In this document: piece by piece, positions 16,834-48,671 of the stretch
Layout of the letters: every line of letters begins with the position of its first letter
Position numbering within the stretch: position 1 is the first letter of the stretch
Assembly: GCA_031414955.1 (NCBI GenBank)
Contig: JANOQV010000009.1
Location: 1 to 48,671, forward strand
Reading direction: 5' to 3'
DNA from: Pedosphaera sp.
Lineage (GTDB): Bacteria > Verrucomicrobiota > Verrucomicrobiia > Limisphaerales > SIBH01
Length of the DNA stretch: 48,671 bases
Notes under the pieces: generated by a model
Database searches by the model: none
Seen by the model: the letters and a program-made list of their open reading frames with translations, nothing else
What the model was told of the DNA's origin: nothing
Translations under genes and position numbers: made by a program

Positions 16834-16878
16834 AATTTGATCTTCCTGATGCGAGTTTCGGTGAGAGTAGAGTGAGGG

Positions 16879-19707
16879 TCAGTCATGGTCCGGAATTGCG
16901 ACGGCTCGGGATCCGCCCGCACTCCGCAGCAGCGCGCGCAGCTCCGCCAAATCCTTCCTCAGCGCGGTGATCTCGGCGGCCTGTGCCCGGGCGATTTGAT
17001 CAAGCCCCTGGATCGCCGCCAGCGCCACGCCGTCGGCGTCCACGGTGGCGATGGTTTTGTCGTCCGCGCCGAGGCCGAACGCGGCTTGGAAATCCTGGGC
17101 CATCGGGCCGACGTGGCGCGTGCCGGGCGCGTTGGTGTAGTGCCAGCTTTGCAGCGGCAACGCGGCGACCCTGGCCAGCACATCGCGCGTGTCCACCGGC
17201 GCGAAGCCCGCCTTGAGATTGCGATCCGAGGCGTTGTTCCAGGTGCTGCCGTCGCAGGTCGCGTTGACCACGCGCAGCCGCGCCGTGGACGACGCGGTGC
17301 CGATGGAGACGTTGCCGCCGCCGGCATTCAGGAACAACGTCGAGGCCGCGCTGTTGTTGCGGGCCTGAATCTCATTGCCGTCCAGGGCCACGTTGCCGGC
17401 GCTGACGGCTCCGAGAACGAGCGTGCCGCCGCCGGTGAGGTTCACGTCCGAACCGCCGACGACATGCAGTGGCGCATCGGGATTGTTGTGCCCGATGCCC
17501 ACGCCGCCGGTCGCCCGGATGAGGAATTGATTGGGAGCAGTAGAAGCAAAGCTCGTGTAATTAACGAAGTCAGCCCAAACGAACGAGCCATCGTGGTTGG
17601 CTTTGGCTAAAACCCCGGCGGCCAGGCTGTAACCACCGTTGGCTTCGTTGAACCATCCGCCCGGGACGCTCGCCCCATATCCGTCCGCGACATTGCCAAT
17701 GCCTCCACCCACCATTGAGTAAGTGCCGCTGCTCGTGTTCTCGTCTCCGCCACTGACCGTGGCTCCGAAAGAATTCGCGCGGTTTCCACGCCCGCCCGCC
17801 ACGGTGCTGTAGTCACCCGAGGCCAGGCCGTTCGCCCCGCCAGTCAGCGTGCTGAAGTCACCCGAAGCCACTCCATTTGTCCCACCCCCGACCGTGCTGT
17901 AGAGGCCGTAGGCGCGATTGTTCCTCCCACCCGCGACCGTGCTCGCCGTGTTGGTCGCTTGATTTGACTGCCCGCCCCCGACCGTGGCGTAGTTGCCGCT
18001 GCTGACGTTGAGAAGACCTCCGCCGACCGTGGTGCCCAGACCGCTGCTTTGGTTTCCATTGCCGCCGCCCACGGTGGCGAACACGGCACTGGCCGTGTTA
18101 TCAACTCCGCCACCGACCGTGGTGTAGTACGAACTGGCCGTGTTGTCGAAACCCCCGCCGACCGTTGCAGCCGATCCGGTGCTCTCGTTCTGGAAGCCGC
18201 CACTGACGGTGCTGTAGGAGTTGGTGGCTCGATTATCACGTCCGCCAGCCACCGTGGCACCAGGGCCGGAGCTTTGGTTATTCCATCCGCCCGCCACGGT
18301 GCTGAAGTCACCCGAGGCCAGCCCATTCGTCCCGCCGCCGACTGTGCTGTAGAGGCCGTAGGCGCGATTGTTTCTGCCTCCCGCGACGGTGCTGGCCGTG
18401 TTGGTCGCCGCGTTGAGCATGCCGCCTCCAACCGAAGTGAATTCCCCGCTGCTGCTGTTAAGCAGACCACCTCCCACTGCCGCGTGGGGTCCGCTGCTGG
18501 TGTTAGCGCTGCCACCCGCGACGGTGGAACTCAAGCCGCTGCTCTCGTTCCCGAAACCGCCGCCAACTGCGCCATAACTCCCGCTCGTGAGGTTGGCTTG
18601 TCCTCCGCCAACAGTCCCCCACGCACCAGCGTTGGTATTGTTCTGACCTCCCGCCACCGTGCTGTAGAACCCAATGGCCCGATTGTTCCTTCCACCCGCG
18701 ACCGTGCTCGCGGTGTTGGTCGCCTGATTGAAAAGTCCGCCGCCGACGAACGCGTAGTCGCCGTTGGCCAGGTTCACGCCACCGCCCGCCACCGTGGCGA
18801 AGAAGCCGATGCTGGTATTGTTGTAGCCGCCGCCGATGGTCGCGCCGACGCCCGCCGTATCGTTGCCCACGCCGCCGCCGACCGTCCCGTAACTGAGGCC
18901 CACGGTGTTCGGCGCGGGGCCGTTGCCCTCGTAATCCGCCGAGCCGCCGCCCGCGATGGTCGCGCCCACCACACCCGGCGCGATGAGATTCACCGGCGAA
19001 CCGCCGAGCACGCCCGGCGCATTCGCGGGCGACGAGTCGGGTTGGAGACGAAAGGCGCGGGAATTGTTCACGCGCAGTTCGAGCGGCTGGTTGTCCGTGG
19101 TGCCGAGGAAGTGGTTCGCCGGTTGCGTCCCGTTGTTGCCGCCGATGCGCCACGCGTTGCTCAAGGCCGCCACTGGCACCGGGCCGACGAGACTCGCGGC
19201 ATTCAGATTGGTCAGCCCGCCGCCGTCGCCGCTGAAGCTGCCGGCGAAAAGATTGGCCGCGTTGGTGATGGCGACCGCGCTGCCGTAGGTGCCGGCCAGT
19301 TGCGCGTTGGAAATCGCGCCGCTGAAGTTCAGCGCCCGAAGAGCATACGGCGTCGCCGTGATCGGCTGGCGCGGGGCGACGTTGGTGTAGTCGCCCAGGC
19401 TGGCACCCGGCCGCACCGCGATTTCCAGCCAGCGTTCGCTGCCGTCGAAGGCCGCGCCGCCGAAGTCGAGTAGGACGGTGAACAGGCCGTTGGTGACGCC
19501 GAGGTCGTTAAGCACGTTGCTGTCACCGACGGTGGTGCCGGCGGCGACCGCATCGTAGAGCGTAAAGGTGAGGTCATACTGTCCGTTGGCAGGCGCGCCG
19601 CCGTCGGTGAGGCGGCCTTGGTAAGTGAAGGCGCTGCCCAAGGACGCGGCGTGGCCGCGCACGAAGGAAGCGGCCAGGAGAAGGCTGATGAGGAGTGATG
19701 TTTTCAT
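16879..19707 (-). CDS. secreted tail-fibre-like protein with C-terminal peptidase S74 / intramolecular chaperone domain
   Basis: signal peptide; FTYQGRL...RWLEIAVR...PRQPITATPYA; 14-aa STVGGGxxNxA repeats; SDRNLK...WHY...HVGPMAQDF...DGVALAAIQGL followed by a coiled coil. Confidence 0.88.
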   Translation of the reverse strand: MKTSLLISLLLAASFVRGHAASLGSAFTYQGRLTDGGAPANGQYDLTFTLYDAVAAGTTVGDSNVLNDLGVTNGLFTVLLDFGGAAFDGSERWLEIAVRPGASLGDYTNVAPRQPITATPYALRALNFSGAISNAQLAGTYGSAVAITNAANLFAGSFSGDGGGLTNLNAASLVGPVPVAALSNAWRIGGNNGTQPANHFLGTTDNQPLELRVNNSRAFRLQPDSSPANAPGVLGGSPVNLIAPGVVGATIAGGGSADYEGNGPAPNTVGLSYGTVGGGVGNDTAGVGATIGGGYNNTSIGFFATVAGGGVNLANGDYAFVGGGLFNQATNTASTVAGGRNNRAIGFYSTVAGGQNNTNAGAWGTVGGGQANLTSGSYGAVGGGFGNESSGLSSTVAGGSANTSSGPHAAVGGGLLNSSSGEFTSVGGGMLNAATNTASTVAGGRNNRAYGLYSTVGGGTNGLASGDFSTVAGGWNNQSSGPGATVAGGRDNRATNSYSTVSGGFQNESTGSAATVGGGFDNTASSYYTTVGGGVDNTASAVFATVGGGNGNQSSGLGTTVGGGLLNVSSGNYATVGGGQSNQATNTASTVAGGRNNRAYGLYSTVGGGTNGVASGDFSTLTGGANGLASGDYSTVAGGRGNRANSFGATVSGGDENTSSGTYSMVGGGIGNVADGYGASVPGGWFNEANGGYSLAAGVLAKANHDGSFVWADFVNYTSFASTAPNQFLIRATGGVGIGHNNPDAPLHVVGGSDVNLTGGGTLVLGAVSAGNVALDGNEIQARNNSAASTLFLNAGGGNVSIGTASSTARLRVVNATCDGSTWNNASDRNLKAGFAPVDTRDVLARVAALPLQSWHYTNAPGTRHVGPMAQDFQAAFGLGADDKTIATVDADGVALAAIQGLDQIARAQAAEITALRKDLAELRALLRSAGGSRAVAIPDHD

Positions 19708-25066: not shown

Positions 25067-28000
25067 ATGAACAAAGCCCGGCTGCACCTCGTTCCGCGCA
25101 CTCTGCGCCTGGTCAAATCCACGGTGGGCGTCGCGCTCACGGCGCTCTTCCTCGCCGCCACCGCATCAGCCTCAGCCTTGATCATCAACCTGACCTACGA
25201 TCCGGATGGAACTTTCACCAACGCCGGTTTGTCGGCGGTGGACATCGTGAACATGAAGACGGCCAGCGCCCAGGCCGCCGCGCTGCTCACCACGAACTTT
25301 ACCGACCAGATCAACGTCAACATCCACATCACGGCGGAGCCGGGCACCAACACGCTCGGCCGCAGCAGCACCGTGCTCATCGCCACCAACTTCGCCACGC
25401 TTCGCGCCCGGCTGCTCGCGGATGCGACGGGGCCGGATGACGCGACGGCGACCGGCCCGGGCGGTTCCCTGCCCTCCTCCGACCCGTTCGGCGGCAGCAC
25501 CAACTTCGTGGTCAGCCGCGCGCAGGCCAAGGCGCTGGGTCTCCTGGCGGATGACGCGGTGACGCTGGATGGCACCTTCACTTTTGGAGGCGGGCACAGC
25601 TTCGCCTACGATCCGACCAACCGGGCGGTGGTGGGGAATTTTGATTTCATCGGCCTGGCCCTGCGCGAATTCACGGAGATCATGGGGCGCGGCTTTGTGA
25701 TGGGGGCGGAAGCCGAGGGCAGCCCCGGTTACATGGTGATGGATCTGTTCCATTTCAGCGCGGCGGGCGTGCCGGCTTTTAACACCGGAGCCGGGCGGTA
25801 TTTCTCGATTGATAACGGCACCACGAGCCTGAAGGACTTCAACAACTACGACCTGAACGGCAGGGATGCCCAAGACTGGGCCAGCGGAGCGAATGACGCC
25901 TTCAACGCCCTCAGCAGCGCCGACGTGAAAAACGATCTGACCGAAGTGGACCTGCGCGTGCTGGAAGTGATCGGCTACAACCGGCTCACGCTGCCCATCG
26001 CCCTGGATGCGACGGGCCTGACGTGGACCACGGGCGGCAATGTGAGTTGGTTTCCACAAACCAACGTCACGCACGACGGCGTGGACGCTGCCCGCAGCGG
26101 CGGCATCACCCACAGCCAGTCGAGCTTCGTCGAGGCCTCCGTCACCGGCCCGGCGGCCTTGAGCTTCTGGTGGAAAGTTTCCTCGGAGACCACCTTCGAC
26201 GCCCTGACCGTGGCGATGGATGGGAACGTCTCCAACTCCATCTCGGGAGAAGTGAACTGGCAGCTCCGCACGCTGGCCGTGCCGGCGGGCGCGCACACGG
26301 TGCGGTGGACCTACTCGAAGGACGGCAGTTCCAGCGCGGGCAGCGACGCGGGCTTTTTGGATCAAGTGACCGTGGCGCTGGCCCCGGTGCTGGCGGGCCT
26401 TGAGGCTGGGGCCGTGGCTTACACGGAGAATCAGGCGGCGGTGCTCCTCACCGCGACCATCACGGCCAGCGATGCGGACAGCGCCAATCTCGCCAGTGCC
26501 ACGGTGAGCATCACGACGGGTTTCACCAGCGGACAGGACGTGCTGGCCATGACGCCCAATCCGCAAAACGGCATCACGGCCGCCTACACTGCGGGTACCG
26601 GCGTGCTGACCCTGAGCGGGGCAAGCGCGGTGGCGAACTATCAATCCGCGTTGCGCAGCGTGACCTACACGAACACCAGTGAGAATCCATCCAACGCGAC
26701 CCGCACCGTCACCTTTCGCGTCAATGACGGCGCGAGCGGCAGCAATCCGCAGTCGCGCAACATCACCGTGGCGGGCGTGAACGACGCGCCGGTGCTGGCG
26801 AGCATCGGGGCCAGCGCCGTGGCCTACACGGAGAACCAGGCGGCAACGCTCGTGACCGCAACCATCACGGTCACGGATGCCGACAGCGCCACCCTCACCG
26901 GCGGCACGGTCAGCCTCAGCACCAATTTCGCCAGCGGCCAGGACGTGCTGGGCATGAATCCGAATCCGCAGAACGGCATCACGGCGACCTACAGCGCCGG
27001 CACGGGCGTCCTGACCTTGAGCGGCTCCAGCACGGTCGTGAGCTACCGGACGGCGCTGCGCAGCGTGAGCTACACCAACACCAGCGACACGCCTTCGACC
27101 GCGCTACGCACGGTCACCATCCTCGCGAATGACGGCGCGGTGGACAGCAACCCGCAATCGCGCAACCTCACCGTGGCGGCAGTCAACGACGCGCCGGTGC
27201 TGGCCAACCTCGAGCCGGGAGCCTTGGGCTACGCGGCGAGTCAGGCGGCGACTCCCGTGACCGCGACACTCACCGCCAGCGATGCGGACAGCACCAATCT
27301 CGTCAGCGGCACGGTGAGCCTCACGGCGGGTTTCAACATCGGACAGGATCTGCTGGCCATGACGCCCAATCCGCAAAACGGGATCTCCGCCAGCTACAAT
27401 GCCGGCTCGGGTGTGATGTCGTTGATCGGTGCCAGCGCGGTGAGCAATTACCAGGCGGCCTTGCGCAGCGTGACCTACTCGAACAGCAGCGCGAACCCTT
27501 CGACCGCAACCCGCACCGTCACTTTTCTGGTCAATGACAGCCCGGCGAACAGCAATCCGCAGGCGCGCAACATCACCGTCAGCGGGCCGAGCCTCATTCC
27601 GCCCATTACCCCGACCAATGGCGGCGTCACCTCCATCCTGCTCTTTGTGGATGATCCGGGTTCGCTCTCGCCCTACAAAACCGCCTTGGATTTCGCGGGA
27701 CTCGGCCACCAATACTTCACCAACGAAGCTCTGTTCAGCGCCGCCGTGGCCGCGAGCAATCCGGTCAGCACGCTGGTGATCGTGAACTCGACCGTGAGCA
27801 ATCACAACTTCTCGCCGCTCATCACCTTTGTGGCCAACGGCGGACGGGCCATTCTCCAATATCAGAACCTCGATGGGGACGCCGCCCTCGCCGCCGCCTT
27901 CAACGTCGCCGTAACGCAGGATGTTTTAACGCCGTTGAATCTCTCCAACTGGGACGGCACTTATTTTTTCGCCCGCGTCGCCAGCCCGCTCATCCTCTCG

Positions 28001-29785
28001 GAACGCGGGAACGCCGATGATGGCGACCGGCTGCGCGCGACCCCGGGCGGTGTGGCGGTGGCGGGCTACACGGCTGTCCCGGAGGACGCCGAAGCCGCCG
28101 TGGTGATCGGCAACGCCGGCCGGACCATCGTGAACGCGCTGGCCCTGGAGAACGCAACCAGCGCCCCGGCCCAGGCCAGTCAGTTCGCGTTGAATGAAAT
28201 CTTCTACCTGCTCGCGCCCCTGAAGGGCGGAGGACGCGTGGCCGTGCTGGGCGCGGAACCCAACACGGGCTGGAACGAGGACGTGCGCCAAAAGCTCCTG
28301 AGCACGGCGGCGTTCGAGGCGGTGGATGTGTTCCAGGTGGACACGATGACTCCGACCCTGGCGCAGTTGCGACCCTACTCGGCCGTGCTCGTCTATTCGG
28401 ATTTGCCTTTCGACAACGCCACCACGCTGGGCGATGTGCTGGCCGACTACACCGAGGCGGGTGGAGGCATCGTGGTTTGCACCTTCGCCCTGCACGAATT
28501 GGGCTCGGGCTATGGAGTTGAGGGACGCCTCCGTTCTGGAGGCTATCTGCCGTTCGTGGGAGTGTCGCAGAGTCAGGGCACCGAGGTCACCATGTTGCCT
28601 GATCAAACCGGGCATCCCATTCTGGCGGGGGTGGGATCGATGAGCGGAGGCAGTTCCAGTTTTCACAATATCGCGGAGGTGGCCAGCCATGCGGATTTGA
28701 TCGCGCATTGGAGCAACGGGCGTCCGCTCATTATGAACAAGCTCACGGGTCTGGGTCGCGTGGCCGGGCTGAACTTTTTTCCGCCCTCGGAAACATTGCA
28801 GGCCAACCTCTGGCGCACCAACAGCGGCGGCGGCCAGCTCATGGCCAACGCCTTGCGCTGGGCCGCCCTGCCCGACTGCACCTTGAAGACCAACTACACC
28901 GCCGACCTGACTTTCACGGACAGCCTGGGCGGCAACACCATGAGCCTGGCCTTCGACGGCACGAACTTCTGGTCGGCCAGCGGCGGCGACACCAACGGCA
29001 ATCGCCTCGCCCGCTACACGGCGGCGGGAACCTTCGTGGCTTCCTACGCGCCGGCCATCGATTTCCGATCCCTCTTCACCGATGCCCGAGGCCGGCTCTA
29101 CGCGCGCGGCTCGGACAGCCCGGCCATCCTGCGTCAAACGACGCCGGGAACTTTCCTTCCTCATCTGGTCTTGAATGGCGGGCCGTTGGATGAAGCGTCC
29201 GCCGTCGTTTTGAGCGGCAACGCCAACGAGTACCTGGCGCTGAACAATGGTGTGGTCAGCCGGTGGAGCACGAACGGCTCTTTCCTCGGCACCGTCACTC
29301 TCGACGGCTTCGGCACCCTCGCCGGAGAGAGCAGCGACTATCAAAATGTGCGCCTGGCCGCGGTGGGCAACGTCTGGCTCACCGGGAACGGCAGCCGGGT
29401 GTTGTCGGTCTGGAACCAAAGCGGGGCCCGCCTCGCCACCACCGTGCTGCAAAACGCCGGCACCGGTTTTGATTCCAAGTACAGTTTCAGCTACTGCGCC
29501 GGCCGGGTCTGGATCGTCGATGCCCCCGGCGGATCGTGGCGCGGCTACGACATCTGCACCTCGCCGGAACGCCCCGTCATCTCAAACCCGGCCCGCGTGG
29601 CGGGTGGAAGGTTCCAATTCGATCTGCGCGCGCCGCCTGCCCGCAGTTACACCCTCGAACGCACCGCCGATCTCATCAACTGGGTGACCTTGACGAATTT
29701 CGTGCCCCTGGCTCCCAACACGGCCATCACCGATGACGGCACTGCGGGCCAAAGCAACCTGTTCTACCGCGCCCGCACGCCGTAG
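25067..29785 (+). CDS. 1572-aa secreted multidomain protein: zincin-like N-terminal domain, three cadherin/Ig-like repeats, further domains and a C-terminal sorting-like domain
   Basis: signal peptide; FDFIGLALREFTEIMGR...MDLFHFSA...YFSIDNG...DAQDW; three 135-aa repeats; ends FYRARTP. Confidence 0.85.
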   Translation: MNKARLHLVPRTLRLVKSTVGVALTALFLAATASASALIINLTYDPDGTFTNAGLSAVDIVNMKTASAQAAALLTTNFTDQINVNIHITAEPGTNTLGRSSTVLIATNFATLRARLLADATGPDDATATGPGGSLPSSDPFGGSTNFVVSRAQAKALGLLADDAVTLDGTFTFGGGHSFAYDPTNRAVVGNFDFIGLALREFTEIMGRGFVMGAEAEGSPGYMVMDLFHFSAAGVPAFNTGAGRYFSIDNGTTSLKDFNNYDLNGRDAQDWASGANDAFNALSSADVKNDLTEVDLRVLEVIGYNRLTLPIALDATGLTWTTGGNVSWFPQTNVTHDGVDAARSGGITHSQSSFVEASVTGPAALSFWWKVSSETTFDALTVAMDGNVSNSISGEVNWQLRTLAVPAGAHTVRWTYSKDGSSSAGSDAGFLDQVTVALAPVLAGLEAGAVAYTENQAAVLLTATITASDADSANLASATVSITTGFTSGQDVLAMTPNPQNGITAAYTAGTGVLTLSGASAVANYQSALRSVTYTNTSENPSNATRTVTFRVNDGASGSNPQSRNITVAGVNDAPVLASIGASAVAYTENQAATLVTATITVTDADSATLTGGTVSLSTNFASGQDVLGMNPNPQNGITATYSAGTGVLTLSGSSTVVSYRTALRSVSYTNTSDTPSTALRTVTILANDGAVDSNPQSRNLTVAAVNDAPVLANLEPGALGYAASQAATPVTATLTASDADSTNLVSGTVSLTAGFNIGQDLLAMTPNPQNGISASYNAGSGVMSLIGASAVSNYQAALRSVTYSNSSANPSTATRTVTFLVNDSPANSNPQARNITVSGPSLIPPITPTNGGVTSILLFVDDPGSLSPYKTALDFAGLGHQYFTNEALFSAAVAASNPVSTLVIVNSTVSNHNFSPLITFVANGGRAILQYQNLDGDAALAAAFNVAVTQDVLTPLNLSNWDGTYFFARVASPLILSERGNADDGDRLRATPGGVAVAGYTAVPEDAEAAVVIGNAGRTIVNALALENATSAPAQASQFALNEIFYLLAPLKGGGRVAVLGAEPNTGWNEDVRQKLLSTAAFEAVDVFQVDTMTPTLAQLRPYSAVLVYSDLPFDNATTLGDVLADYTEAGGGIVVCTFALHELGSGYGVEGRLRSGGYLPFVGVSQSQGTEVTMLPDQTGHPILAGVGSMSGGSSSFHNIAEVASHADLIAHWSNGRPLIMNKLTGLGRVAGLNFFPPSETLQANLWRTNSGGGQLMANALRWAALPDCTLKTNYTADLTFTDSLGGNTMSLAFDGTNFWSASGGDTNGNRLARYTAAGTFVASYAPAIDFRSLFTDARGRLYARGSDSPAILRQTTPGTFLPHLVLNGGPLDEASAVVLSGNANEYLALNNGVVSRWSTNGSFLGTVTLDGFGTLAGESSDYQNVRLAAVGNVWLTGNGSRVLSVWNQSGARLATTVLQNAGTGFDSKYSFSYCAGRVWIVDAPGGSWRGYDICTSPERPVISNPARVAGGRFQFDLRAPPARSYTLERTADLINWVTLTNFVPLAPNTAITDDGTAGQSNLFYRARTP
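26381..27583 (+). repeat. three intragenic tandem repeats with 405-nt period
   Basis: APVLA-coding starts at 26381, 26786, 27191; conserved PNPQNGI, YxxALRSVxYxN, SNPQxRNxTV. Confidence 0.9.
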
Positions 29786-39545: not shown

Positions 39546-40610
39546 TCAACTCCGGGCGAAACTCTCCGTCCGCCGACGCAACTGCCCACACGCCGCGTCG
39601 ATGTCCTTGCCGCGCGAGCGGCGGAAGTGCGCGACAAGTTTCCGCGCGCGCAGAATTTCAGCGAACGCCTCAGCCGTCTCATCCGATGATGGCTCGTAAG
39701 CAATGCCACGCAGACTCAACCCGGTGGGATTGTAGCGCAGCAGATTGATGTGCATCCGTCGCGAGCCGATCAATTCTGCGAGCAGCCGCGCGTGTTCCAG
39801 CGAGTCATTCACGCCCGCGAGCAGGCAATACTGAATCGTCACCGGCCGTCCGCGACTCGCCTGAAAACGATCCGCCGCCGCGAGAATGTCCGCGATGGGA
39901 TAGCGTTTCCCCATCGGCAGCAACCGGGCGCGCGTGGCGTCATCGGGCGCGTGGAGAGAAACCGCGAGATGAATGTTCAACCCCGTCGCCGTGAGCGCCT
40001 CGATGCCCGGCACGATGCCAACCGTGGACACAGTGATCTGCCTCCAACCCAGCGCACCGAGTTTATTATCCGCCATCCGCCGCACCGCCGCGAGCACCGC
40101 GTCGAGATTCAGCAGCGGTTCGCCCATGCCCATGAAGACCACCGTCTGAAGTTTGCGCCCGACCGCCTGCGCCTCGCGTCGCAAGGCCAGGAACTGCTCC
40201 ACGATTTCTCCAGCGGTGAGATTGCGTTCAAAACCCGTCTTCGTCGTGGCGCAAAAATCACACCCCATCGCACACCCCACCTGCGATGAGATGCACCCCG
40301 CCGCGCGGTCGTCGCGAAAGTCCGGCATCAACACCGACTCCACCGTGCGCCCATCGCCAAGCCGCAGCAGCAGCTTGGTCGTCCCATCCGTCGCCACCTG
40401 TCGCACCGCCAGCGTCGCCGCACTCGGTGTGAGTTCCGCCCGCAACCGCTCGACCAATCCCTGCGGTAGCCCGCGTGACGGCGAACTCACGATGTCGCCA
40501 CCCGCATAGAAAGCTCGCAACACCCGCGCCGCGTGACTGGGTTTGTAGCCCCACGCCGCGAACTGCTTCGCGAGCGGGGCGGGATCGAAGTCAGCGAGCG
40601 GGGCAAACAC
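39546..40610 (-). CDS. rlmN: RlmN/Cfr-family radical SAM RNA methyltransferase
   Basis: CISSQVGCAMGCDFC, MGMGEPLLN, SLHAP, DIDAACGQL. Confidence 0.93.
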   Translation of the reverse strand: MFAPLADFDPAPLAKQFAAWGYKPSHAARVLRAFYAGGDIVSSPSRGLPQGLVERLRAELTPSAATLAVRQVATDGTTKLLLRLGDGRTVESVLMPDFRDDRAAGCISSQVGCAMGCDFCATTKTGFERNLTAGEIVEQFLALRREAQAVGRKLQTVVFMGMGEPLLNLDAVLAAVRRMADNKLGALGWRQITVSTVGIVPGIEALTATGLNIHLAVSLHAPDDATRARLLPMGKRYPIADILAAADRFQASRGRPVTIQYCLLAGVNDSLEHARLLAELIGSRRMHINLLRYNPTGLSLRGIAYEPSSDETAEAFAEILRARKLVAHFRRSRGKDIDAACGQLRRRTESFARS

Positions 40611-40650
40611 AAGGTGACGGGGCTTTGGTCAGCATCGGGGAAAAGCGATC

Positions 40651-40932
40651 TCAGTAAACCTCGTCGTGCGTACCGATCGCTTCGAGAGCAACGGCTGGCT
40701 GTCCCTCATGTTTGGTCAGGCGGAAGACGACGCGCAAATCATAGCCGCCGCTGGCCGACCAAGAACCTGCCAGCGCGCCCTTGAGCTTGTGGGTTCGCAA
40801 CGCCGGAGCGAAAGGGTCAGCGGACAGACATTCCAGGAGGCTTTCTATTTCCGACGATGCTCCCGGATGTTTTTTGAGGTATCGCTTGGCAGAGCGCAGG
40901 AAGGCCGGGCTGGGCAGCAGGACGTGCTTCAC
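40651..40932 (-). CDS. RelE/YafQ-superfamily type II toxin
   Basis: [11 protein letters not shown]...[19 protein letters not shown]...YDLRVVF...IGTHDEVY. Confidence 0.9.
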
Positions 40933-41135
40933 GGTTTCACCTGGCGCATGATGGAGGCGACGGAAGCGGGCTTGCACTTGCCGGCGGCCTGTTCTTTCCG
41001 GGACTGCTTCACAGTCGCGATCAGTTCAGCCCGGCGGCGTTCCGTCAGGCGGCGGTTCATGATTTCCAAGACAGACTCTTGTTCCTCAAGAGGCAAGGCT
41101 TCCAAAGCTTCCAGCGTGGCGGCGTAGCTGTTCAT
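40929..41135 (-). CDS. cognate antitoxin
   Basis: 68 aa, [15 protein letters not shown]...RRAEL; GTGA overlap with the toxin. Confidence 0.8.
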
Positions 41136-41142
41136 GGCGGGA

Positions 41143-41171
41143 ACGATACGTTTGGCAGTTGAATTTGCCAA
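41143..41171 (-). promoter_or_regulatory. TA promoter with overlapping inverted repeat
   Basis: minus strand TTGGCA-17 nt-TATCGT, 7 nt before ATG; TTGGCA-N8-TGCCAA inverted repeat overlaps the -35. Confidence 0.55.
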
Positions 41172-41177
41172 TCCCGG

Positions 41178-41210
41178 AAACAAAAAGCTGCCCCGGTTTC
41201 CCGGAGCGGC
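41178..41210 (-). terminator. intrinsic terminator after ppdK copy A
   Basis: GCCGCTCCGG-GAAA-CCGGGGCAGC followed by TTTTTGTTT. Confidence 0.85.
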
Positions 41211-41229
41211 TTGGTGATCCTGAAGTCGA

Positions 41230-41700
41230 TTACTTCTTCTTCGCAGGTTGGCGCCCTTGCGCTTCTCCTCGATGGCCGCCTGGGCGGCGGCGAGGCGGGC
41301 GACGGGGACGCGGTAGGGTGAGCAACTCACGTAGCTGAGGCCGAGCTTGTGGCAGAACTTCACAACATGGATGCAGGCCCCGCCTGCTCGCCGCCGTGTT
41401 CGCCGCAGATGCCGAGCTTGATGTCGGGCCGGGTCTTGCCGCCCTTCTCGATGGCGATTTGCATGGGGTAGGGCGGGCGACTCGCCTGCCTGAGCGCGTC
41501 TCGCCGCAAAAGGCCGACGCGGGTCTGGTCAATCGTGGCAAAGGGTGGGCGTCCGCCAGAACTTCTTCTTCACGATTTCCAGTTCCGCGTAGCCGGGCAG
41601 GAAGCTGCCGGAGTCGTCGCGGGACATGCCGAGCGCGGTCTGCGTGAGATCGTTGGTGCCGAAGCTGAAGAACTCGGCGGTGTGCGCGATCTCGTCGGCC
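41230..41700 (-). pseudogene. ppdK: ppdK 3'-end copy A, degenerate
   Basis: [29 protein letters not shown]...GICGEHGGE...[20 protein letters not shown]; three short insertions and frameshifts. Confidence 0.92.
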
Positions 41701-41783
41701 AGGGCTATAAGCCCGACAGATGATGGCCCAGGGCAACGCCCTGGGTTAATCGTCAAACAAGTTGTTCAAGCCCTGTAAGGGCG
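41701..41783 (+). repeat. REP-like left arm of RM cassette 1
   Basis: AGGGCTATAAGCCCGACAGATGATGGCCCAGGGCAACGCCCTGGG...AGCCCTGTAAGGGCG; first 36 nt match the reverse complement of 45062-45097 at 31/36. Confidence 0.85.
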
Positions 41784-41837
41784 AGGTAACGATGTCGCCG
41801 CCCGCATAGAACGCTGACAACGGCAGGTCGTCAGGCA

Positions 41838-43835
41838 TCAAGTGAGAACCGCATCATCAATGCTATTCAGTAGCCGTTGAATTCGCCCCGTCTCCTTGCG
41901 TTGCACCAAGTATTCGCTGTAGATGTGGCGCGTGTTATCCAAGAGTTCTTTGTAAAGCAACACACGCATTCCCTTCCTGCGAAAGACATCCTCATCTTCG
42001 TCGCGCCGCTTCGGATTGTTCCAGTTCTTGAGCGGAACTCCGATCAGAAACACGACTTCAATCGGCTCGTTCTCCCTCCTGCGGTTCACGAGCAATGCAG
42101 TCAGTCCATCGCGATACTTCTCGCCCTGCTTGAGCAAATCGCCGAGTTCCATCTTCCGTTCAGGCCGTTTCAGTTCGATGATGACGTGGGTCTTGGAGGT
42201 TGTGGAATACTTGATGTCGAAGCGCGCCTTTCGCTCATCCTCAGAAATTTCCGATTCGGCAAAATCGATGAACTCTTTCCGCAGCCCGGACTCGACGTAT
42301 TCCGTGTCTGTGGCCCGCTCCCACGCGGGGTCGAGCAACCACAAGTGCGAGTAAACGTAATCTCGGATGACAGATTCGAGTTCGTTGCTGTCCACCTTCG
42401 ACTCCAGTGCCTCAATGACTTCGATTCGTCCGCTAAGAATCTGATGATAAAGGCTGGCTTCAATGTCGTCCAAGTCCGCAAAAATTTCACCGACGAGAGC
42501 TATATCCTCGGGTTTAATTTTCTCCAAGGCATCCAAATTTTCTTTGTAGCGTAAGTGCTCAAACGCCAAGACCCCGTATTTGAAGAGCTGTTTCTTGTCC
42601 TGCGGTGATTCGATGGTGAGTTGGTTGATTTTGCCAAACAGCGAACTCGCCTTGCGCTTGCCGTCACCCCCGAGGTCGTTGAACCACGCTTTGATGGCGG
42701 GTATCTGCATCGCCTCCTCAGTTCCGCGTTTGTTGCGGAGATCGGTCCACTTGTTCTGGATATGCTTCAACTCCTGTTGAATGAACTCGCGCAGAGCAAC
42801 GTAGCGTGGATCATCCTCCATGATTTTCTGACGACTGCTGGTGGCAATGTCGTCCTGCTCGTTCAGGTCGAGAAAGTCCGCGTGAATCTCGCCAATCAGA
42901 TACTTGGAATACATCCCGCCTTCGTTGAAGTCCTCAAGGATGTCTTCCTGCGCCATCTTTCCCCGCACCATCACGACAATCTTGTTGAGGTTGTCCTCCT
43001 CGTCTTTCAAGTCACCAGACTCCCGGACGGTGCCAATCCAACCCGTGACCTGAAACTTCTGCGCCGGGTCGTCTCCCTCGGTAGGAAGCGCGATTTCATT
43101 CGCGCGCTCTTCGCACGAACCAAGTTTGTCAGGGTTGGAGATGGGCAGCGCATCAATAGTCCCATAGTGCCAAAGGAACTGGAGCTTCGAGAAATAGCCG
43201 CGATCAACGATGCTGACCGGCTTCGAGTTGATCTTCAGCGCGAAACACGATTTCTCGCCGAGGATGCTGAAACGGCGAGCCAGTCGCTTCCGTAAGGCCG
43301 CTTCGGTCTGATGTTGGCTCTTCTTCAGTTCAGCAAGGACAATTCGCGTGCCCTTCTGGAGGTCAGCCGGAAAGTCGGAAAGAACCGAGGGCTGATAATC
43401 AGATTCCTTCCGCGAAATTTTTGCCTCAATTTCGGAAAGAAGCATTTTGAAGCCGCGCTTATCGCCATTTTTGACGGTGTAAATTCGGATGTCCTTAGCG
43501 ATGGAAAACAGTGAAAGCTTGCCGATTCCCTTTCGCCCCATCACTGGGCGCAACAGAGTCGGCGAGACTGCGCCTTGATTGCCTGGGTCGCGACGGCGGT
43601 AGCCAATCGTGAGGAATTTTCCGTTGATGTCTTCCAAATCCATGCCGTGACCATTGTCGGTTATCACAATTGTGCCGCCGCGCTTATCGATCACGATGTC
43701 CACACTTTCGGCATCTGCATCCCAAGCGTTGGCTACGGTCTCCGACAAAACCGCAGGAACATTGCTGTAAAGATTGATGCCGAGATGGTTGAGCAAGTTT
43801 AGGCTCAACGTCATGTGGTAAGGCGATTCAGGCAT
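41838..43835 (-). CDS. GHKL-ATPase / PD-(D/E)xK restriction endonuclease (HgiDII/BbrUII-like)
   Basis: ETVANAWDADA, DNGHGM, GRKGIGKLS, GT GHKL motifs; HLWLLDPAW; RFDI...IIELKRP nuclease motif; coupled to an m5C MTase; lower GC than the flanks. Confidence 0.8.
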   Translation of the reverse strand: MPESPYHMTLSLNLLNHLGINLYSNVPAVLSETVANAWDADAESVDIVIDKRGGTIVITDNGHGMDLEDINGKFLTIGYRRRDPGNQGAVSPTLLRPVMGRKGIGKLSLFSIAKDIRIYTVKNGDKRGFKMLLSEIEAKISRKESDYQPSVLSDFPADLQKGTRIVLAELKKSQHQTEAALRKRLARRFSILGEKSCFALKINSKPVSIVDRGYFSKLQFLWHYGTIDALPISNPDKLGSCEERANEIALPTEGDDPAQKFQVTGWIGTVRESGDLKDEEDNLNKIVVMVRGKMAQEDILEDFNEGGMYSKYLIGEIHADFLDLNEQDDIATSSRQKIMEDDPRYVALREFIQQELKHIQNKWTDLRNKRGTEEAMQIPAIKAWFNDLGGDGKRKASSLFGKINQLTIESPQDKKQLFKYGVLAFEHLRYKENLDALEKIKPEDIALVGEIFADLDDIEASLYHQILSGRIEVIEALESKVDSNELESVIRDYVYSHLWLLDPAWERATDTEYVESGLRKEFIDFAESEISEDERKARFDIKYSTTSKTHVIIELKRPERKMELGDLLKQGEKYRDGLTALLVNRRRENEPIEVVFLIGVPLKNWNNPKRRDEDEDVFRRKGMRVLLYKELLDNTRHIYSEYLVQRKETGRIQRLLNSIDDAVLT

Positions 43836-44913
43836 GATGTTCCTCCAAGTGTCGTTTGATGGTTTTCCCGACTATCTCTCCCAGCCGCACCGGAACCGCG
43901 TTGCCAATCATTCGCCCGATGGTCTTGAAGCAGTATCTGCCGCCAGGCGGCACGAACTCGTAGTCCTCCGGGAACGATTGGAGAATTGCACCTTCGCGCA
44001 GTGAGATGGCGCGGTCTTGCTCAGGATGGCCGAAGCGCCCGTTGCCGAAGCCGAAGAACTGCGTGGTGATGGTGGGCGAGGGTTTGTCCCACTCCATGCG
44101 GCCATAAACGCTCGGGTAGGTCTTGCCAGTCTTGACCTGGTGGCACTTGGCGACGAGTTCGCGCGGCCAGTCGCGCCAGGTGCCGCCGGGCCGGGAACGG
44201 CGGATGCGGCGGAGATTGAGCGGTGAGAGTTCGCTGGTGCGGTGGAGCGGGTCGGCGGGGGACACGTCGCCCGCTGCGAGCGCCGGCAGAGGGCGCAACA
44301 CATCGCAAACTTTGCGGTGCTGGGTGGGCGCGTGCGTGGGCGCGATGAGTTCGATGGGGCCGAGACGTGAAGCAATCAGCACAAGGCGGCGGCGGTGTTG
44401 CGGGATGCCGTAGTCGGGGCAATAGACGACTTGCTTCTCGCGATCCTCGGTGAAGTGAAAGCCCTCGTCGGCGAGCGTGGCGAGGAAACGGTCGAAGATG
44501 GAGTGGCGCTGAATTTCAGGAACATTCTCCATCGAAACAATGTCGGGCTTCAGCTCGCGCACGAGGCGGGCGAATTCATTGAGCAGTTTCCATTTCGGAT
44601 CGTCGCCGTTGTCGCGACCTTGCGTGTATTTCGAGAAGGTCTGACAAGGGGCGCAGCCCACAAGGATACGCGTGTGCCCAGCGGGATAATGGGCGGCAAG
44701 CATTGCGCCAGTCACTTCGGTGACGCTGATTTTTTTGAACTCGGCTCCGGGGTTATTGTGTTCGTAAGGGAAGTGGCACGCAGCATCCACGTCGTAACCA
44801 GCGGCGACGGGAATCCCGGCGTCGAGCAAGCCGCGCGTCAACCCGCCCGCGCCGCTGAAGATGTCAACTGCGGTAGCGCGTGCCGGTTTGGTGCGTGAGG
44901 AACGGCGGCTCAT
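43828..44913 (-). CDS. C5-cytosine DNA methyltransferase
   Basis: DIFSGAGG (I), GCAPCQ (IV), ENV (VI), YGIPQHRRR (VIII), REGAILQSFP (IX), IGNAVP (X). Confidence 0.96.
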   Translation of the reverse strand: MSRRSSRTKPARATAVDIFSGAGGLTRGLLDAGIPVAAGYDVDAACHFPYEHNNPGAEFKKISVTEVTGAMLAAHYPAGHTRILVGCAPCQTFSKYTQGRDNGDDPKWKLLNEFARLVRELKPDIVSMENVPEIQRHSIFDRFLATLADEGFHFTEDREKQVVYCPDYGIPQHRRRLVLIASRLGPIELIAPTHAPTQHRKVCDVLRPLPALAAGDVSPADPLHRTSELSPLNLRRIRRSRPGGTWRDWPRELVAKCHQVKTGKTYPSVYGRMEWDKPSPTITTQFFGFGNGRFGHPEQDRAISLREGAILQSFPEDYEFVPPGGRYCFKTIGRMIGNAVPVRLGEIVGKTIKRHLEEHHA

Positions 44914-44997
44914 GTTTCACGCATTGTTTCCAGAACTGCGACGGACGCGCAAGGTTCCAAGCGAGTCCGGTCGGAGTTTATCAGAGAGGCGGCTCTG

Positions 44998-45097
44998 GCA
45001 CCACTTCAGGGTGCATGAACTCTCTGGACGGTTGACCCGGGGCGTCGCTCGCGGACTCGCTTTGCCCGGGGCTATCATCTGTCGGTCTTTCAGCCCT
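44998..45097 (-). repeat. REP-like right arm of RM cassette 1 (inverted)
   Basis: GCACCACTTCAGGGTGC...CCCGGGGCGTCGCTCGCGGACTCGCTTTGCCCGGGGCTATCATCTGTCGGTCTTTCAGCCCT. Confidence 0.85.
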
Positions 45098-45111
45098 GCT
45101 TTGGAGGCGGC

Positions 45112-45144
45112 AAACAAAAAGCCGCCCCGGTTTCCCGGAGCGGC
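45112..45144 (-). terminator. intrinsic terminator after ppdK copy B
   Basis: GCCGCTCCGG-GAAA-CCGGGGCGGC followed by TTTTTGTTT. Confidence 0.88.
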
Positions 45145-45230
45145 CAGATGGGCGCTCACCACGAGGGCGAGCTAACCCTGCGTGCTGGACACCGAAGCGT
45201 CCGCACAAGGTCTCCTTGCGGAGACAATCC

Positions 45231-45642
45231 TTACTTCTTCTTCGCCGGCTTCGCAGCGGCCTTGCGCTTCTCCTCGATGGCAGCTTGCGCGGCGGCGCGG
45301 CGGGCGACGGGGACGCGGTAGGGCGAGCAGCTCACGTAGCTGAGGCCGAGCTTGTGGCAGAACTTCACGGAATCGGGTTCGCCGCCGTGTTCACCGCAGA
45401 TGCCGAGCTTGATGTCGGGACGGGTCTTGCGGCCCTTCTCGATCGCGATCTGCATGAGCTGGCCCACGCCGGTCTGGTCAATCGTGGCGAAGGGATTCTT
45501 CTTCACGATCTCGAGTTCCGCGTAACCGGGCAGGAAGCTGCCGGAGTCGTCGCGCGACATGCCGAGCGCGGTCTGCGTGAGGTCGTTGGGGCCGAAGCTG
45601 ATCCCGCCACGCGGGCTGGCGGTGTGTGCGATCTCGTCGGCC
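45231..45642 (-). pseudogene. ppdK: ppdK 3'-end copy B
   Basis: ADEIAHTA[SPRGGI]SFGPNDLTQ...[10 protein letters not shown]...[13 protein letters not shown]; 5'-truncated at the same point as copy A. Confidence 0.93.
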
Positions 45643-45683
45643 AGGGCTGTAAACCCGGCAGGTGATAGCCCAGGGCAAGCGAG
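45643..45683 (+). repeat. REP-like left arm of RM cassette 2
   Basis: AGGGCTGTAAACCCGGCAGGTGATAGCCCAGGGCAAGCGAG, homologous to 41701-41736. Confidence 0.8.
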
Positions 45684-45752
45684 ATGAAGTTCGCGCCCAC
45701 CAATCGCTCGTCCGCCCTCGACGGCGAACTGCCAATCAAATAATCTCCCGTT

Positions 45753-46643
45753 GTGCCGCATCCGAAACTGCCCAAGCCAACGACCTTCGCCGACTACAAG
45801 CCGGACGGGCGCAATTGGATCACCCTCGCGACCGGCGAATACTTTCCCGACATCCTCAAGGACGCCTGCCTGCTCTACGGACCAGTCCTCGTGCTTTTCG
45901 GGCAGCTCCTGCGTTCATCGGAATCCTCGACGCGGCTGATGATGCAGATTTCTGAGCAGACGGACGGCTGGATGCGCGTTCAACTCGCCCGCGTCTTTCG
46001 CAAATACGTCAGCCCCGAGACGCCGGTGGAAATGCTCAAGCAGAAATCGAAAGCGGCGAAAATCTGCGAGGAATTCGGCAAAGGCTTCCGTCCCGTTCAC
46101 GAAGTTCAGGCGGCGTTCTCCACGCGCCCGTTGCCGGATGAAGCTCTCTGCGCGCTGCTTTGGGAATACAAGGACCGTGGCAAAAAGGGCTACGACCTCA
46201 CTGAACGCCTTTTCGCCATGTTCCGGGATAAATTTCCGAACCTTCCGCTGTCCGGGCCGGAACGCGCAGGAAAGGACATTCTGCTTGGCGATGTTTTCCC
46301 GAATTATCCGAAGCCCAGCCGCCCGGTGGACTTCATCATCCGCGACCCGGTGAAAGGCGACGTGCTCGCCGTGGGCCTCGCACGCTACGACGGAGATCGC
46401 GGCGGCGCGCAGGAAGACGACCGCACCGGTGGTTACAGCAACTGTGCAGACGAAGTGCTGGCCTACGCGCGCAAGCACGGACTGCGCACCAAAGTCATCT
46501 TCATCAACGACGGCCCCGGCCTCCTGCTCGGCTCGATGTGGAATGACTACGCCGCTCTGGAGCGCAGTCACAAGGGGCGCATCCTCGTCGCCACCCTTCG
46601 CATGGTGCCGGAGCGGCTCACCCGCGAATGGCTCGCCTCTTGA
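45753..46643 (+). CDS. type II restriction endonuclease, BstEII-like from recalled similarity
   Basis: RPVDFII...[20 protein letters not shown]...FINDGPG; directly upstream of an amino-MTase. Confidence 0.72.
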
Positions 46644-46644
46644 C

Positions 46645-48153
46645 ATGGCCACCGGCATTCCAAATTCCAACGGCGGCAATGGGCGCACCCCGGCACGGAT
46701 GGGCGAAGCCGCAACAGTCACATTGACCTACCCCGGAAAGAAATCTGTCGCGGCCATTCTCGCCACGCCGCCCGCGAAAATTTCCGTCGCGTGGTCAGGC
46801 GAAACCTCTCCTAGCCGCAACGCACTTTACTACGGCGAAAACCTCGCCGTCCTCGCCGCTCTCTCCCACGACCCGCGAGTGCGGGGCAAAGTTCGCCTTA
46901 TCTACATCGACCCGCCCTACGCCACGCGCAGCGTCTTCCAGTCGCGCAAGCAGGCCGACGCTTATCACGACCTTCTCGCCGGGGCCGACTATCTCGAATT
47001 TCTCCGTGAACGCCTCATCATCCTGCGCGAACTCCTCGCCGCCGACGGCAGCATTTACGTCCACCTTGATGAAAATATGGCGTTCCAAGCCAAGGTGCTC
47101 ATGGACGAAATCTTCGGCCCGTCAAACTTCCGCAACTGGATCACGCGGAAGAAATGCAATCCCAAGAACTACACGCGCAAGACCTACGGCAACGTCTCCG
47201 ATTACATCCTCTTCTACACAAAGACCGACGATTATGTCTGGCACCGTCCGCTCATTACGTGGACCGACGAACATGCCGCGCGCGAATACACCTACGTCGA
47301 ATCCGGCACAGGACGGCGCTACAAGAAAGTTCCGATCCACGCCCCCGGCGTTCGCAACGGCGAAACCGGAAAGACATGGCGTGGCATGACGCCGCCGCCC
47401 GGCAAACACTGGCAGTATCTACCCAGCACCCTCGATGAAATGGATTCGCGCGGCGAAATCTACTGGTCCCCGACCGGCAACCCGCGCCGCAAAATTTACC
47501 TCGACCAAAGCGGTGGCATTCCAGTGCAGGACATCTGGACGGAGTTTCGCGACGCGCACAACCAGAACATTCGCATCACCGGCTACCCGACCGAGAAAAA
47601 CCCCGAGATGCTCGCGCGCATCATTGCCGCATCTTCCAAGCCCGGTGACCTCGTGCTCGATTGTTTCTGTGGCTCCGGCACCACGCTCGAAGCCGCACAC
47701 CGTCTCGGTCGTCATTGGCTCGGCGTGGACAACAGTGCCGAGGCTATCCGCACCACGCTGGCCCGCTTCGCCAAAGGCGTCGAGCCGATGGGCGATTTCG
47801 TCCGTCGGATGGAGCGCGAAGACACGACACAAAGCGATGAAACGATGCTGCCACTGTTTGACCTGAACGTCCCCATCAAGAAAACGAACGACGACAACGG
47901 CGCACACGAACCCATCACGAATTTCGCCCTTCATGTCGCCGCCGGTCTGCACAGCACCGAAGTTTTGAAGCACTGGCCCCCGGCTGGATCGTCACAGTCA
48001 TCGCCATCAGTCGGGAGCGTTGCCGACTACGACGCGGCTGCCCTTCGCGAGGAACCTGCGTCCCCACCCACCCGGGCAGTTCCGCCGCGCCGCGCAGTCC
48101 GCTATTCCGTCAAGAGAGTGAAGCGCAAGCCCGCTGCAAGAACTTCAAAATAG
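46645..48153 (+). CDS. N6A/N4C DNA methyltransferase, beta class
   Basis: LIYIDPPY (motif IV) precedes YPTEK...VLDCFCGSGTT (motif I). Confidence 0.94.
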   Translation: MATGIPNSNGGNGRTPARMGEAATVTLTYPGKKSVAAILATPPAKISVAWSGETSPSRNALYYGENLAVLAALSHDPRVRGKVRLIYIDPPYATRSVFQSRKQADAYHDLLAGADYLEFLRERLIILRELLAADGSIYVHLDENMAFQAKVLMDEIFGPSNFRNWITRKKCNPKNYTRKTYGNVSDYILFYTKTDDYVWHRPLITWTDEHAAREYTYVESGTGRRYKKVPIHAPGVRNGETGKTWRGMTPPPGKHWQYLPSTLDEMDSRGEIYWSPTGNPRRKIYLDQSGGIPVQDIWTEFRDAHNQNIRITGYPTEKNPEMLARIIAASSKPGDLVLDCFCGSGTTLEAAHRLGRHWLGVDNSAEAIRTTLARFAKGVEPMGDFVRRMEREDTTQSDETMLPLFDLNVPIKKTNDDNGAHEPITNFALHVAAGLHSTEVLKHWPPAGSSQSSPSVGSVADYDAAALREEPASPPTRAVPPRRAVRYSVKRVKRKPAARTSK

Positions 48154-48190
48154 CCGCCGGGCGTGCGTGGGCTTTCACGAAACGCTGGCC

Positions 48191-48223
48191 AACAAAAAGA
48201 CCGCCCCGGTTTCCCGGAGCGGC
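48191..48223 (-). terminator. intrinsic terminator after ppdK copy C
   Basis: CCGCTCCGG-GAAA-CCGGGGCGG followed by TCTTTTTGTT. Confidence 0.88.
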
Positions 48224-48308
48224 CAGATGGGCGCTCACCACGAGGGCGAGCAACCCTGCGTGCTGGACGCCGAAGCGTCCGCACAAGGTCTCCTTGCGGA
48301 GACAATCC

Positions 48309-48671
48309 TTACTTCTTCTTCGCCTTCGGTGCGGCGGCTTTGCGCTTCTCCTCGATGGCGGCTTGCGCGGCGGCGAGGCGGGCGACGGGGACGCGGTAGG
48401 GCGAGCAGCTCACATAGCTGAGGCCGAGCTTGTGGCAGAACTTCACGGAATCGGGTTCGCCGCCGTGTTCGCCGCAGATGCCGAGCTTGATGTCGGGCCG
48501 GGTCTTGCGGCCCTTCTCGATGGCGATCTGCATGAGCTGGCCGACACCGGTCTGGTCAATCGTGGCGAAGGGATTCTTCTTCACGATTTCCAGTTCCGCG
48601 TAGCCGGGCAGGAAGCTGCCGGAGTCGTCACGCGACATGCCGAGCGCGGTCTGCGTGAGGTCGTTGGTGCC
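48309..48671 (-). CDS. ppdK: pyruvate phosphate dikinase C-terminus, running off the window edge; may be the intact gene or a further copy
   Basis: uninterrupted [16 protein letters not shown]...[10 protein letters not shown]...[19 protein letters not shown]. Confidence 0.85.

Follow-up and report, generated by a model that had tools for sequence, protein, structure and literature searches.

Duplicated ppdK 3′ ends separate stacked defence cassettes in a Pedosphaera genome and recur across families of its order

Introduction

In Pedosphaera sp. (GenBank assembly GCA_031414955.1; Verrucomicrobiota, Limisphaerales), contig JANOQV010000009.1 carries an array in which three 3′ ends of the central metabolic gene ppdK, here called copies C, B and A, separate a BstEII-like restriction–modification (R-M) pair, a second R-M pair formed by a 5-methylcytosine (m5C) methyltransferase and a BbrUII-family enzyme, and a toxin–antitoxin (TA) pair. 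The stretch analysed, referred to as the window, is the whole of this 48,671-nt contig, C9 of a 6.5-Mb, 313-contig genome denoted G000; G and L numbers designate the genomes and loci compared with it. The array probably represents R-M ‘insertion with long target duplication’ that took place repeatedly at a single site, the products being spread through host homologous recombination. New here are the repeated involvement of a single gene in 12 families and one distant lineage, the transfer of the unit together with a core gene between families, the presence of several docking genes in one genome, and a junction anchored by a repetitive extragenic palindromic (REP)-like sequence.

Insertions of R-M systems between repeats of up to 423 bp, often across stop codons and mostly in competent species, were described by Furuta, Abe and Kobayashi in 2010, with invasion, amplification and release proposed as their life cycle; release and infection are said, in the part of that paper available to us, to lack evidence (PMC2853133). 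The observations below provide comparative evidence for a step so far only postulated in the R-M literature, namely that defence modules flanked by duplications reach new hosts.

The array in the window

Read from the ppdK side, the array opens with copy C (48309..48671, minus strand), which encodes the PEP-utilizers_C domain in a frame open to the contig end and is probably the working ppdK end; codons 1–772 of ppdK stand at the end of contig C21, about 81 nt short of copy C, the C21-to-C9 join is not assembled, and further units could hide in the gap. Between C and B lie, both on the plus strand, a BstEII-like restriction endonuclease of 296 aa (45753..46643), whose close relatives, where named, are called bstEII, and a type II amino-methyltransferase (46645..48153; likely start 46645, open reading frame (ORF) open from 46429). 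Displaced copy B (45231..45641, minus strand) starts at −401 from the stop, bears one replacement near its left end and is fused to the right half of a REP-like palindrome (45642..45678, minus strand; a weak match to the Rfam motif Acido-Lenti-1). The second cassette follows, with an outward-facing REP-like palindrome (44995..45098, plus strand), the m5C DNA methyltransferase (43828..44913, minus strand; Pfam DNA_methylase) and the BbrUII/HgiDII-family GHKL restriction enzyme (41838..43835, minus strand; NF050001 above cut-off), and then a full palindrome (41701..41784, minus strand) whose last base adjoins the start of displaced copy A (41230..41700, minus strand). Copy A starts as B does and carries 16-, 42/43- and 14-nt insertions; beyond it lie a putative antitoxin and a YafQ/RelE-like toxin (40651..41135, minus strand) and a second RlmN-family gene (39546..40610, minus strand). 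A terminator-like hairpin, seen in the sequence, follows each ppdK end: with a T run after C (48190..48223, minus strand; repeat D9), together with a structured element after B (45112..45231, minus strand), and after A at 41178..41210 (minus strand). The direct repeats measure 401–530 nt, are otherwise single-copy in G000, and separate inserts of about 2.5 and 3.3 kb.

An initial annotation had already described three ppdK 3′ ends punctuating defence cassettes, and both the repeats and the cargo were verified. Its order of units stands, but its minus-strand reading fails for the first R-M pair, which lies on the plus strand, opposite to ppdK, and it had overlooked a 33-nt rlmN remnant and an 88-nt element after the stops of C and B. 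The extension past position 48671 that it called for could be had in part only, the window being the whole contig, with the 5′ part of ppdK found at the end of C21 across an unassembled join. Its description of the array as integrase-free was borne out: no PF00589 match occurs on contigs C9 or C21, and no recombinase, transposase or transfer family appeared in Pfam scans of 12 ORFs at 36–48.7 kb and, at 1–36 kb, of 28 ORFs out of the 53 that reach 200 aa.

The amino-methyltransferase matches Pfam N6_N4_Mtase and the PADLOC model MTase_II (6.7e-140). Its BstEII-like partner gave no match in Pfam, PADLOC or NCBIfam, and relatives at 76–88% identity are called bstEII by their sources. The BbrUII/HgiDII-family restriction endonuclease scores 809 bits against a cut-off of 550. 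The toxin, preceded by a 68-aa ORF, matches YafQ/RelE at E 1.2e-5, which is under Pfam's cut-off, and the TA pair shares 87% identity with one located behind ppdK in G078 (family f66). The gene downstream of the TA pair, of the RlmN family and 37% identical to the copy on contig C99, is possibly itself a passenger, being found behind ppdK in genomes of six families.

Recurrence in relatives

Two ppdK pieces stand on one contig in 14 genomes from 12 families of the order (G000, G001, G020, G046, G078, G134, G139, G148, G192, G199, G216, G226, G343 and G388), a count of inspected fetched loci and not a full census; two ppdK ends also occur in G008, on two contigs. The left ends of the displaced copies fall at −401, −364, −356, −209, −195, −154, −137, −59, −463, −557 and −596 from the stop, at least 11 positions in all, as expected of long, variable duplications. 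The −401 start is shared by copies A and B of G000, by G001, G021 and G134, and by two copies in G199; an exact junction pattern retrieved three loci in genome contigs and none in metagenome contigs, a pattern that misses variants such as those of G199. The contigs that carry ppdK or the array in G000, G199, G134, G078, G216 and G226 gave no PF00589 match, these contigs being short and the relatives having been searched for tyrosine recombinases only, not for serine recombinases.

Cargo elsewhere, surveyed in the genomes other than G148 and G343, includes R-M and TA genes, an Avs4-like NACHT protein, and PD-Lambda-1-like, AAA and SNF2 genes, which confirms the variable cargo at ppdK expected in the initial annotation. 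Its statement that every cargo is a defence or addiction module holds within the window but not beyond it, with MBL-hydrolase/ArsR genes between the ppdK copies of G020 and a B12 radical-SAM gene between those of G046. Duplicated gene ends are an easy means of locating defence hot spots in Verrucomicrobiota; Avs4-like, PD-Lambda-1-like and unnamed genes are among the cargo seen so far.

The first R-M pair of the window also occurs in G009 as one cassette with no duplication, and G244 has ppdK followed by rlmN with no cargo, both genomes belonging to other species or families. Among 79 metagenomic loci with a BstEII-like gene, one (L232:3182-9570), from a distant bacterium with a PpdK of 50% identity, shows the layout again: ppdK, a BstEII-like R-M pair, a 233-nt ppdK copy at 94% identity, a ParE TA pair and a second copy of 113 nt at 86%, with an Mrr gene upstream and no palindrome match.

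Three further loci with ppdK pieces were noted. The locus at G308:C39 (L128:4972-7655), which is not on the contig of the intact ppdK, holds a ppdK 3′ end with its terminator, a helix–turn–helix gene, a methyltransferase and upstream ppdK pieces, and looks from its sequence like a permuted unit inserted elsewhere. At G365:C87 (L071:9934-10040), which has no relation to the ppdK locus, a full palindrome with a 25-nt ppdK stub neighbours Mrr-like and AAA genes. In G139 (L101:1228-2471), two pieces from inside ppdK, representing an intragenic duplication of about 170 nt, enclose a two-gene module that is TA-like by eye.

Transfer of ppdK between families

Identity to G000 was compared between 1150 nt of unduplicated ppdK and rpoB. 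The ppdK and rpoB values are 91.9% and 77.9% for G199, 89.9% and 75.1% for G365, 89.8% and 79.4% for G020, 91.0% and 83.1% for G021, and 92.2% and 84.1% for G162, against 82% and 83% (G156), 83% and 81% (G155 and G102) and 84% and 85% (G314) for congeners. Families stay together in the rpoB tree (23 rows), whereas a supported clade of the ppdK tree (37 rows) mixes families f1, f6, f8, f9, f13, f15 and f81; approximately unbiased (AU) tests on the ppdK tree rejected 4 of 4 family groups (p-AU 0.007 to 2e-56), the groups having been taken from taxonomy and tested after the tree was known. High identity spans the whole of ppdK and, in G199 and G007, also about 650 nt upstream, which argues against convergence through codon bias. 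Whole ppdK moved between families, and rpoB did not; a central metabolic gene swapped in this manner at such sites means that single-gene phylogenies can mislead.

These observations bear on the suggestion that the units are remnants of integrase islands at the ppdK 3′ end, their integrase lost or acting in trans, in the manner of the cis-mobilizable elements (CIMEs) of Streptococcus. Accretion of integrative and conjugative, integrative mobilizable and cis-mobilizable elements in that genus yields stacked units at the 3′ ends of housekeeping genes, some without a recombinase of their own, as here, and CIMEs lacking an integrase accrete in tandem at the 3′ ends of fda, rpsI, rpmG and rplL, according to the part of that work available to us (PMC7563491); copies A and B share one start, and G000 has eight PF00589 matches elsewhere. 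CIMEs, however, descend from elements that carry an integrase and retain their att sites (PMC7563491), whereas the repeats described here, of 60–600 nt, begin at varying positions, and no integrase was found linked to them; their left ends number at least 11, with a fixed crossover solely within the −401 lineage, a tyrosine recombinase was seen on the array contigs of none of the six genomes tested, and replacement of the whole gene, along with the roughly 650 nt of upstream sequence that G199 and G007 have in common, is no product of site-specific integration. An origin as island remnants is accordingly judged quite unlikely.

Mosaic copies

Over aligned bases, B and C are 94.5% identical, A and C 93.0%, and A and B 91.9%, so that substitution identity hardly drops with distance along the array. 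Copies A and B start at one ppdK base, joined to the palindrome end. The left replacement of B is common to G001, both G199 copies and the G365 stub; the 16-nt insertion of A is found in G001, G021 and G134, the 42/43-nt insertion in G001 and G134, and the 14-nt insertion in A only. The short insertions of A and B gave no repeat-family match within the genome. Among the seven long displaced −401 copies, the 43-nt lesion never occurs without the 16-nt lesion to its left, the order to be expected were crossovers to renew the right part of the copies, with a single informative copy (G021). The sequence after the stop of copy A resembles G291 (family f13), and the distal flank of G199 resembles G025 of its own genus.

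The initial annotation had read increasing decay as ordered addition at the ppdK-proximal end. Its counts of one insertion in B and several in A are correct, but the chronology does not follow: lesions are recombined across genomes, and the first displaced copy carries three in G001 and one (copy B) in G000. With lesions both inherited and reassorted, the gradient of decay provides no clock, and lesion counts do not date the units; proximal addition itself remains plausible.

An assembly artefact is unlikely

Concatenation of strain alleles during assembly would produce a similar picture, and some features of the data fit it: contamination of the metagenome-assembled genome (MAG) is 5.8%, the contig ends inside a repeat, and no unitig spans a repeat. 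The junctions recur, however, in G001 and G199. In G001, of the same genus, the match extends over 3268 nt at 90.5% identity, a single 3264-nt contig containing the C end, that R-M pair, half a palindrome and the copy. G199, of family f13, matches the unit of R-M pair, REP-like palindrome and copy over 1126 nt at 91%, and there the order is R-M pair, palindrome, copy, terminator, palindrome, Mrr/helicase cargo, palindrome and second copy, with the genes and post-terminator flank beyond the array 85–93% identical to its own genus (G025, G291). The copies in the window differ from one another every 15–20 nt, and unitigs that match the two cassettes and the flank exactly reach similar depths in two runs of one study, possibly the source of the assembly (8–15 in X1, 6.6–9 in X2). 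The control gene, rpoB, has its 3′ end doubled in a single genome out of 129 from the order. A chimera is unlikely, since genomes assembled independently, one of them from another family, contain this unit too, and concatenation of strain alleles in particular is scarcely credible; the concern that the array might be such a concatenation, raised with the first description, can be set aside.

A raw count gave at least two ppdK C-terminal matches in 20 of 354 genomes before inspection, among them the unpublished G316, which enters into this count only; G135, G184, G244, G257, G330 and G352 proved to be paralogues, split contigs or frameshifts, and only inspected loci were used. A table of unitig joints, which mixes many organisms at 90% likeness, was not counted as evidence for circles or empty sites, and runs X3 and X7 cover relatives alone.

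The palindrome junction

The palindrome scores 36.2 bits against Acido-Lenti-1, a motif described in PMC2864571, for a gathering threshold of 37, and the final position of the model falls on the base that immediately precedes copy A. Positions 7–90 of the query match REPs across the order, and ppdK begins at 91–92. A junction of terminator and palindrome, in the window that at the palindrome 44995..45098, is common to G000, G078, G134 and G199, ahead of different cargo. On contig C90 of G000, palindromes at 9159 and 9716 face outward around a Y1/HUH transposase (PF01797, 9303-9644), and outward palindromes, oriented as around cassette 2, also flank an NgoMIV-family R-M pair on C105.

Palindromes facing outward around a Y1 transposase, as on C90, characterise the published REPtrons, TIRtrons and TnpA-REP or REP-associated tyrosine transposase (RAYT) systems (PMC3333891 and PMC3733652, in the parts available to us), and the same palindrome family surrounds cassette 2. 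A RAYT-like Y1/HUH transposase acting in trans could have cut and joined the palindromes, made the −401 junction and loaded REP-bounded cassettes, with homologous recombination merely spreading the product. The position of cassette 2, the C90 transposase gene and the C105 pair between outward palindromes favours this account, as do the coincidence of the −401 junction with the last base of the Rfam motif, the different cargo after one terminator–REP junction in four genomes, the REP with its 25-nt ppdK stub at the unrelated G365 locus, and the activities of E. coli TnpA-REP, namely cleavage of C|T at a distance, strand exchange and perhaps the capture of neighbouring genes (PMC3333891, in the part available). 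Against it, no left-end palindrome was found, by BLAST feature scan or by eye, in most other arrays (G020, G046, the distal copy of G078, G216, G388 and L232) or at lysS and pyc; the palindrome ends in CT, but none of about 60 listed native ppdK alleles has C|T at −401, a rule taken from E. coli TnpA-REP that may not be this subfamily's; and the fixed junction may go back to a single ancient event. Loading by such a transposase is on balance considered unlikely, and the fixed REP junction offers a direct test case for RAYT cargo movement. No published description of REP-bounded defence cassettes was found, most subscription papers lying outside the search. A report on TnpA-REP and lanthipeptides (10.1101/2020.03.09.984088), whose causal claim is withdrawn by the paper itself in the part available, was not used as support.

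The palindrome family was also noted on contigs C90, C92, C105, C127 and C165 of G000, C155 of G073, C7 of G080 and C51 of G036, where an uncontrolled survey of the adjoining genes listed R-M systems (Eco57I, type ISP, NgoMIV), TA clusters, Pnkp and a helicase–nuclease.

Other docking genes

Contig C83 of G000 (L278:1-4260) carries a lysS 3′ end and three displaced copies (1340-1700, 2394-2710 and 3564-3793) at a spacing of about 1 kb, with a PIN toxin in one gap; the copies have common lesions and are about 79% identical to the working end, and 3′ pieces resembling thrS, recognised by eye, face them. Doubled lysS ends occur in 7 of 135 genomes of the order. On C140 (L279:3237-6785), the pyc 3′ end is duplicated over 529 nt at 95% identity around low-GC genes and a ParE toxin, with an MNT-HEPN pair after the duplication. 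With lysS and pyc arrays in the same genome, ppdK is one of several docking genes.

More repeated gene pieces surround TA-type cargo on C3 (12297-14033; PemK) and C137 (57182-62584; SocA/Panacea) of G000. The metagenomic BstEII-like R-M loci L196, L202, L194, L254 and L250-L252 have flanking direct repeats or a 6.9-kb tandem repeat, the direct repeats including lysS ends and a hydrogenase-maturation-type gene.

A proposed route of spread

In the route considered probable, a cassette would first insert with a long target duplication spanning stop and terminator, so that ppdK stays whole. Both arms of the resulting unit, ppdK–cargo–ppdK′, would then match any resident ppdK; linear incoming DNA or a looped-out circle, brought by some transfer vehicle, would recombine in, presumably with the help of RecA, and the resident end and its terminator would be pushed beyond the cargo. 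The unit would often replace the whole ppdK allele, and, no shared downstream gene being needed, it could cross family lines. Units would stack by repeated events, crossovers within copies refreshing their right parts and leaving lesions on the left, and cargo would be swapped behind fixed junctions, probably via recombination at REP-like palindromes. Addiction to R-M and TA systems would counter loss by looping out. Stacking through ppdK homology, as first suggested in the initial annotation, is supported by the occurrence of the same unit in G001 and G199. The presence of ComEC was considered as a sign of competence and dropped, its model also responding in 10 of 14 control genomes.

Several points weigh against this route. 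No circle, same-species pair of empty and filled sites, or recombination event was seen. The −401 junction may be of single origin, in which case its seven copies are not independent. Pieces of ppdK away from ppdK, in G308:C39, G365:C87 and G021:C128, are not explained by homology alone. The lesion order depends on G021 as its one informative copy, and the AU groups, though taken from taxonomy, were tested once the tree was known. The whole repeat is spanned by no unitig in X1 or X2, and all genomes are fragmented MAGs, for which misbinning is excluded at G199:C55, unlikely at G134:C132 and possible at G021:C128 and G199:C122.

The copies might alternatively be scars of local tandem duplication of the ppdK–rlmN interval, followed by allelic replacement of cargo between conserved flanks, with no role for the copies in spread. 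A 33-nt remnant of the 5′ region of an rlmN-like gene (41789..41821, minus strand; repeat D15) precedes both the REP and copy A, in the manner of a duplication joint, its score of 46 exceeding the best score, 31, among 2999 random stretches (0/2999 in the null test), and G007, G009, G011, G131, G182, G244 and G314 have variable or no ppdK–rlmN cargo and no second copy. G199, however, acquired the unit despite having no rlmN downstream of its array, and the remnant is missing from the other copies, so that scars of this kind are regarded as very unlikely.

More speculatively, and with considerable doubt, a two-step integrase-free system may be envisaged in which a domesticated, RAYT-like HUH enzyme would load palindrome-bounded cassettes and the duplicated end would act as a universal homology arm, moving cassettes and the core gene between families, with ppdK, lysS, thrS and pyc as docking genes in parallel.

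Relation to known systems

The likeness of spread by target duplication and homologous recombination to the class of Furuta and colleagues is close: there, an R-M pair without mobility genes lies between direct repeats of 30 to more than 400 bp with the gene left intact, and of the features that define the class in the available part of that paper, all but an empty site in the same species are found here: restriction and modification genes in an insert below 20 kb, a repeat above 30 bp, no linked mobility gene and variable duplication length (PMC2853133). The published cases available to us are single insertions, recognised in within-species or close comparisons, whereas here units are stacked, one gene is used across 12 families, cargo extends beyond R-M, and the target is replaced across families. 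A reading of the locus as specific to ppdK or unprecedented is not supported: lysS and pyc arrays occur in the same genome, and R-M insertions that duplicate as much as 423 bp are already in print (PMC2853133, Table 3, as available). No published description of ppdK arrays or of ppdK as an integration site was found, with the same limit on subscription papers.

Transformation of S. pneumoniae with partly repeated donor DNA yields tandem structures by unequal crossing-over, but the duplications in the available part of that study are of 100–900 kb and bounded by insertion sequences, whereas those here are gene ends of less than 1 kb around foreign cargo (PMC3784515).

Integrons also stack defence cassettes, with addition at the proximal end. 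Unlike theirs, the cassettes here have their own promoters and either orientation, and no IntI stands beside the array on C9 or C21. An Rfam scan of 40000-48671 gave no attC at E of at most 5, with no dedicated attC model run; the term integron-like thus proved an analogy only, a dedicated recombinase and an attC-type or attI site not having been found.

Further features of the window

Directly after the ppdK stop, a three-hairpin structured element of 88 nt (48222..48309, minus strand) is predicted, with a second at 45143-45231. Across 12 sequences, 9 of its 26 predicted pairs show compensatory change; it has GNRA and UUCG loops and no Rfam match, and its model matches only beside ppdK ends, in 8 of 101 genomes, patchily across families. 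A role as recombination site was considered and dropped, the element being absent from copy A and most arrays, and it is treated as a passenger.

Elsewhere, at 25067-29785 and 14260-19707, the window holds a 1572-aa ORF with internal repeats, an 857-aa ORF without a Pfam match and a 942-aa ORF with a Peptidase_S74 tail.

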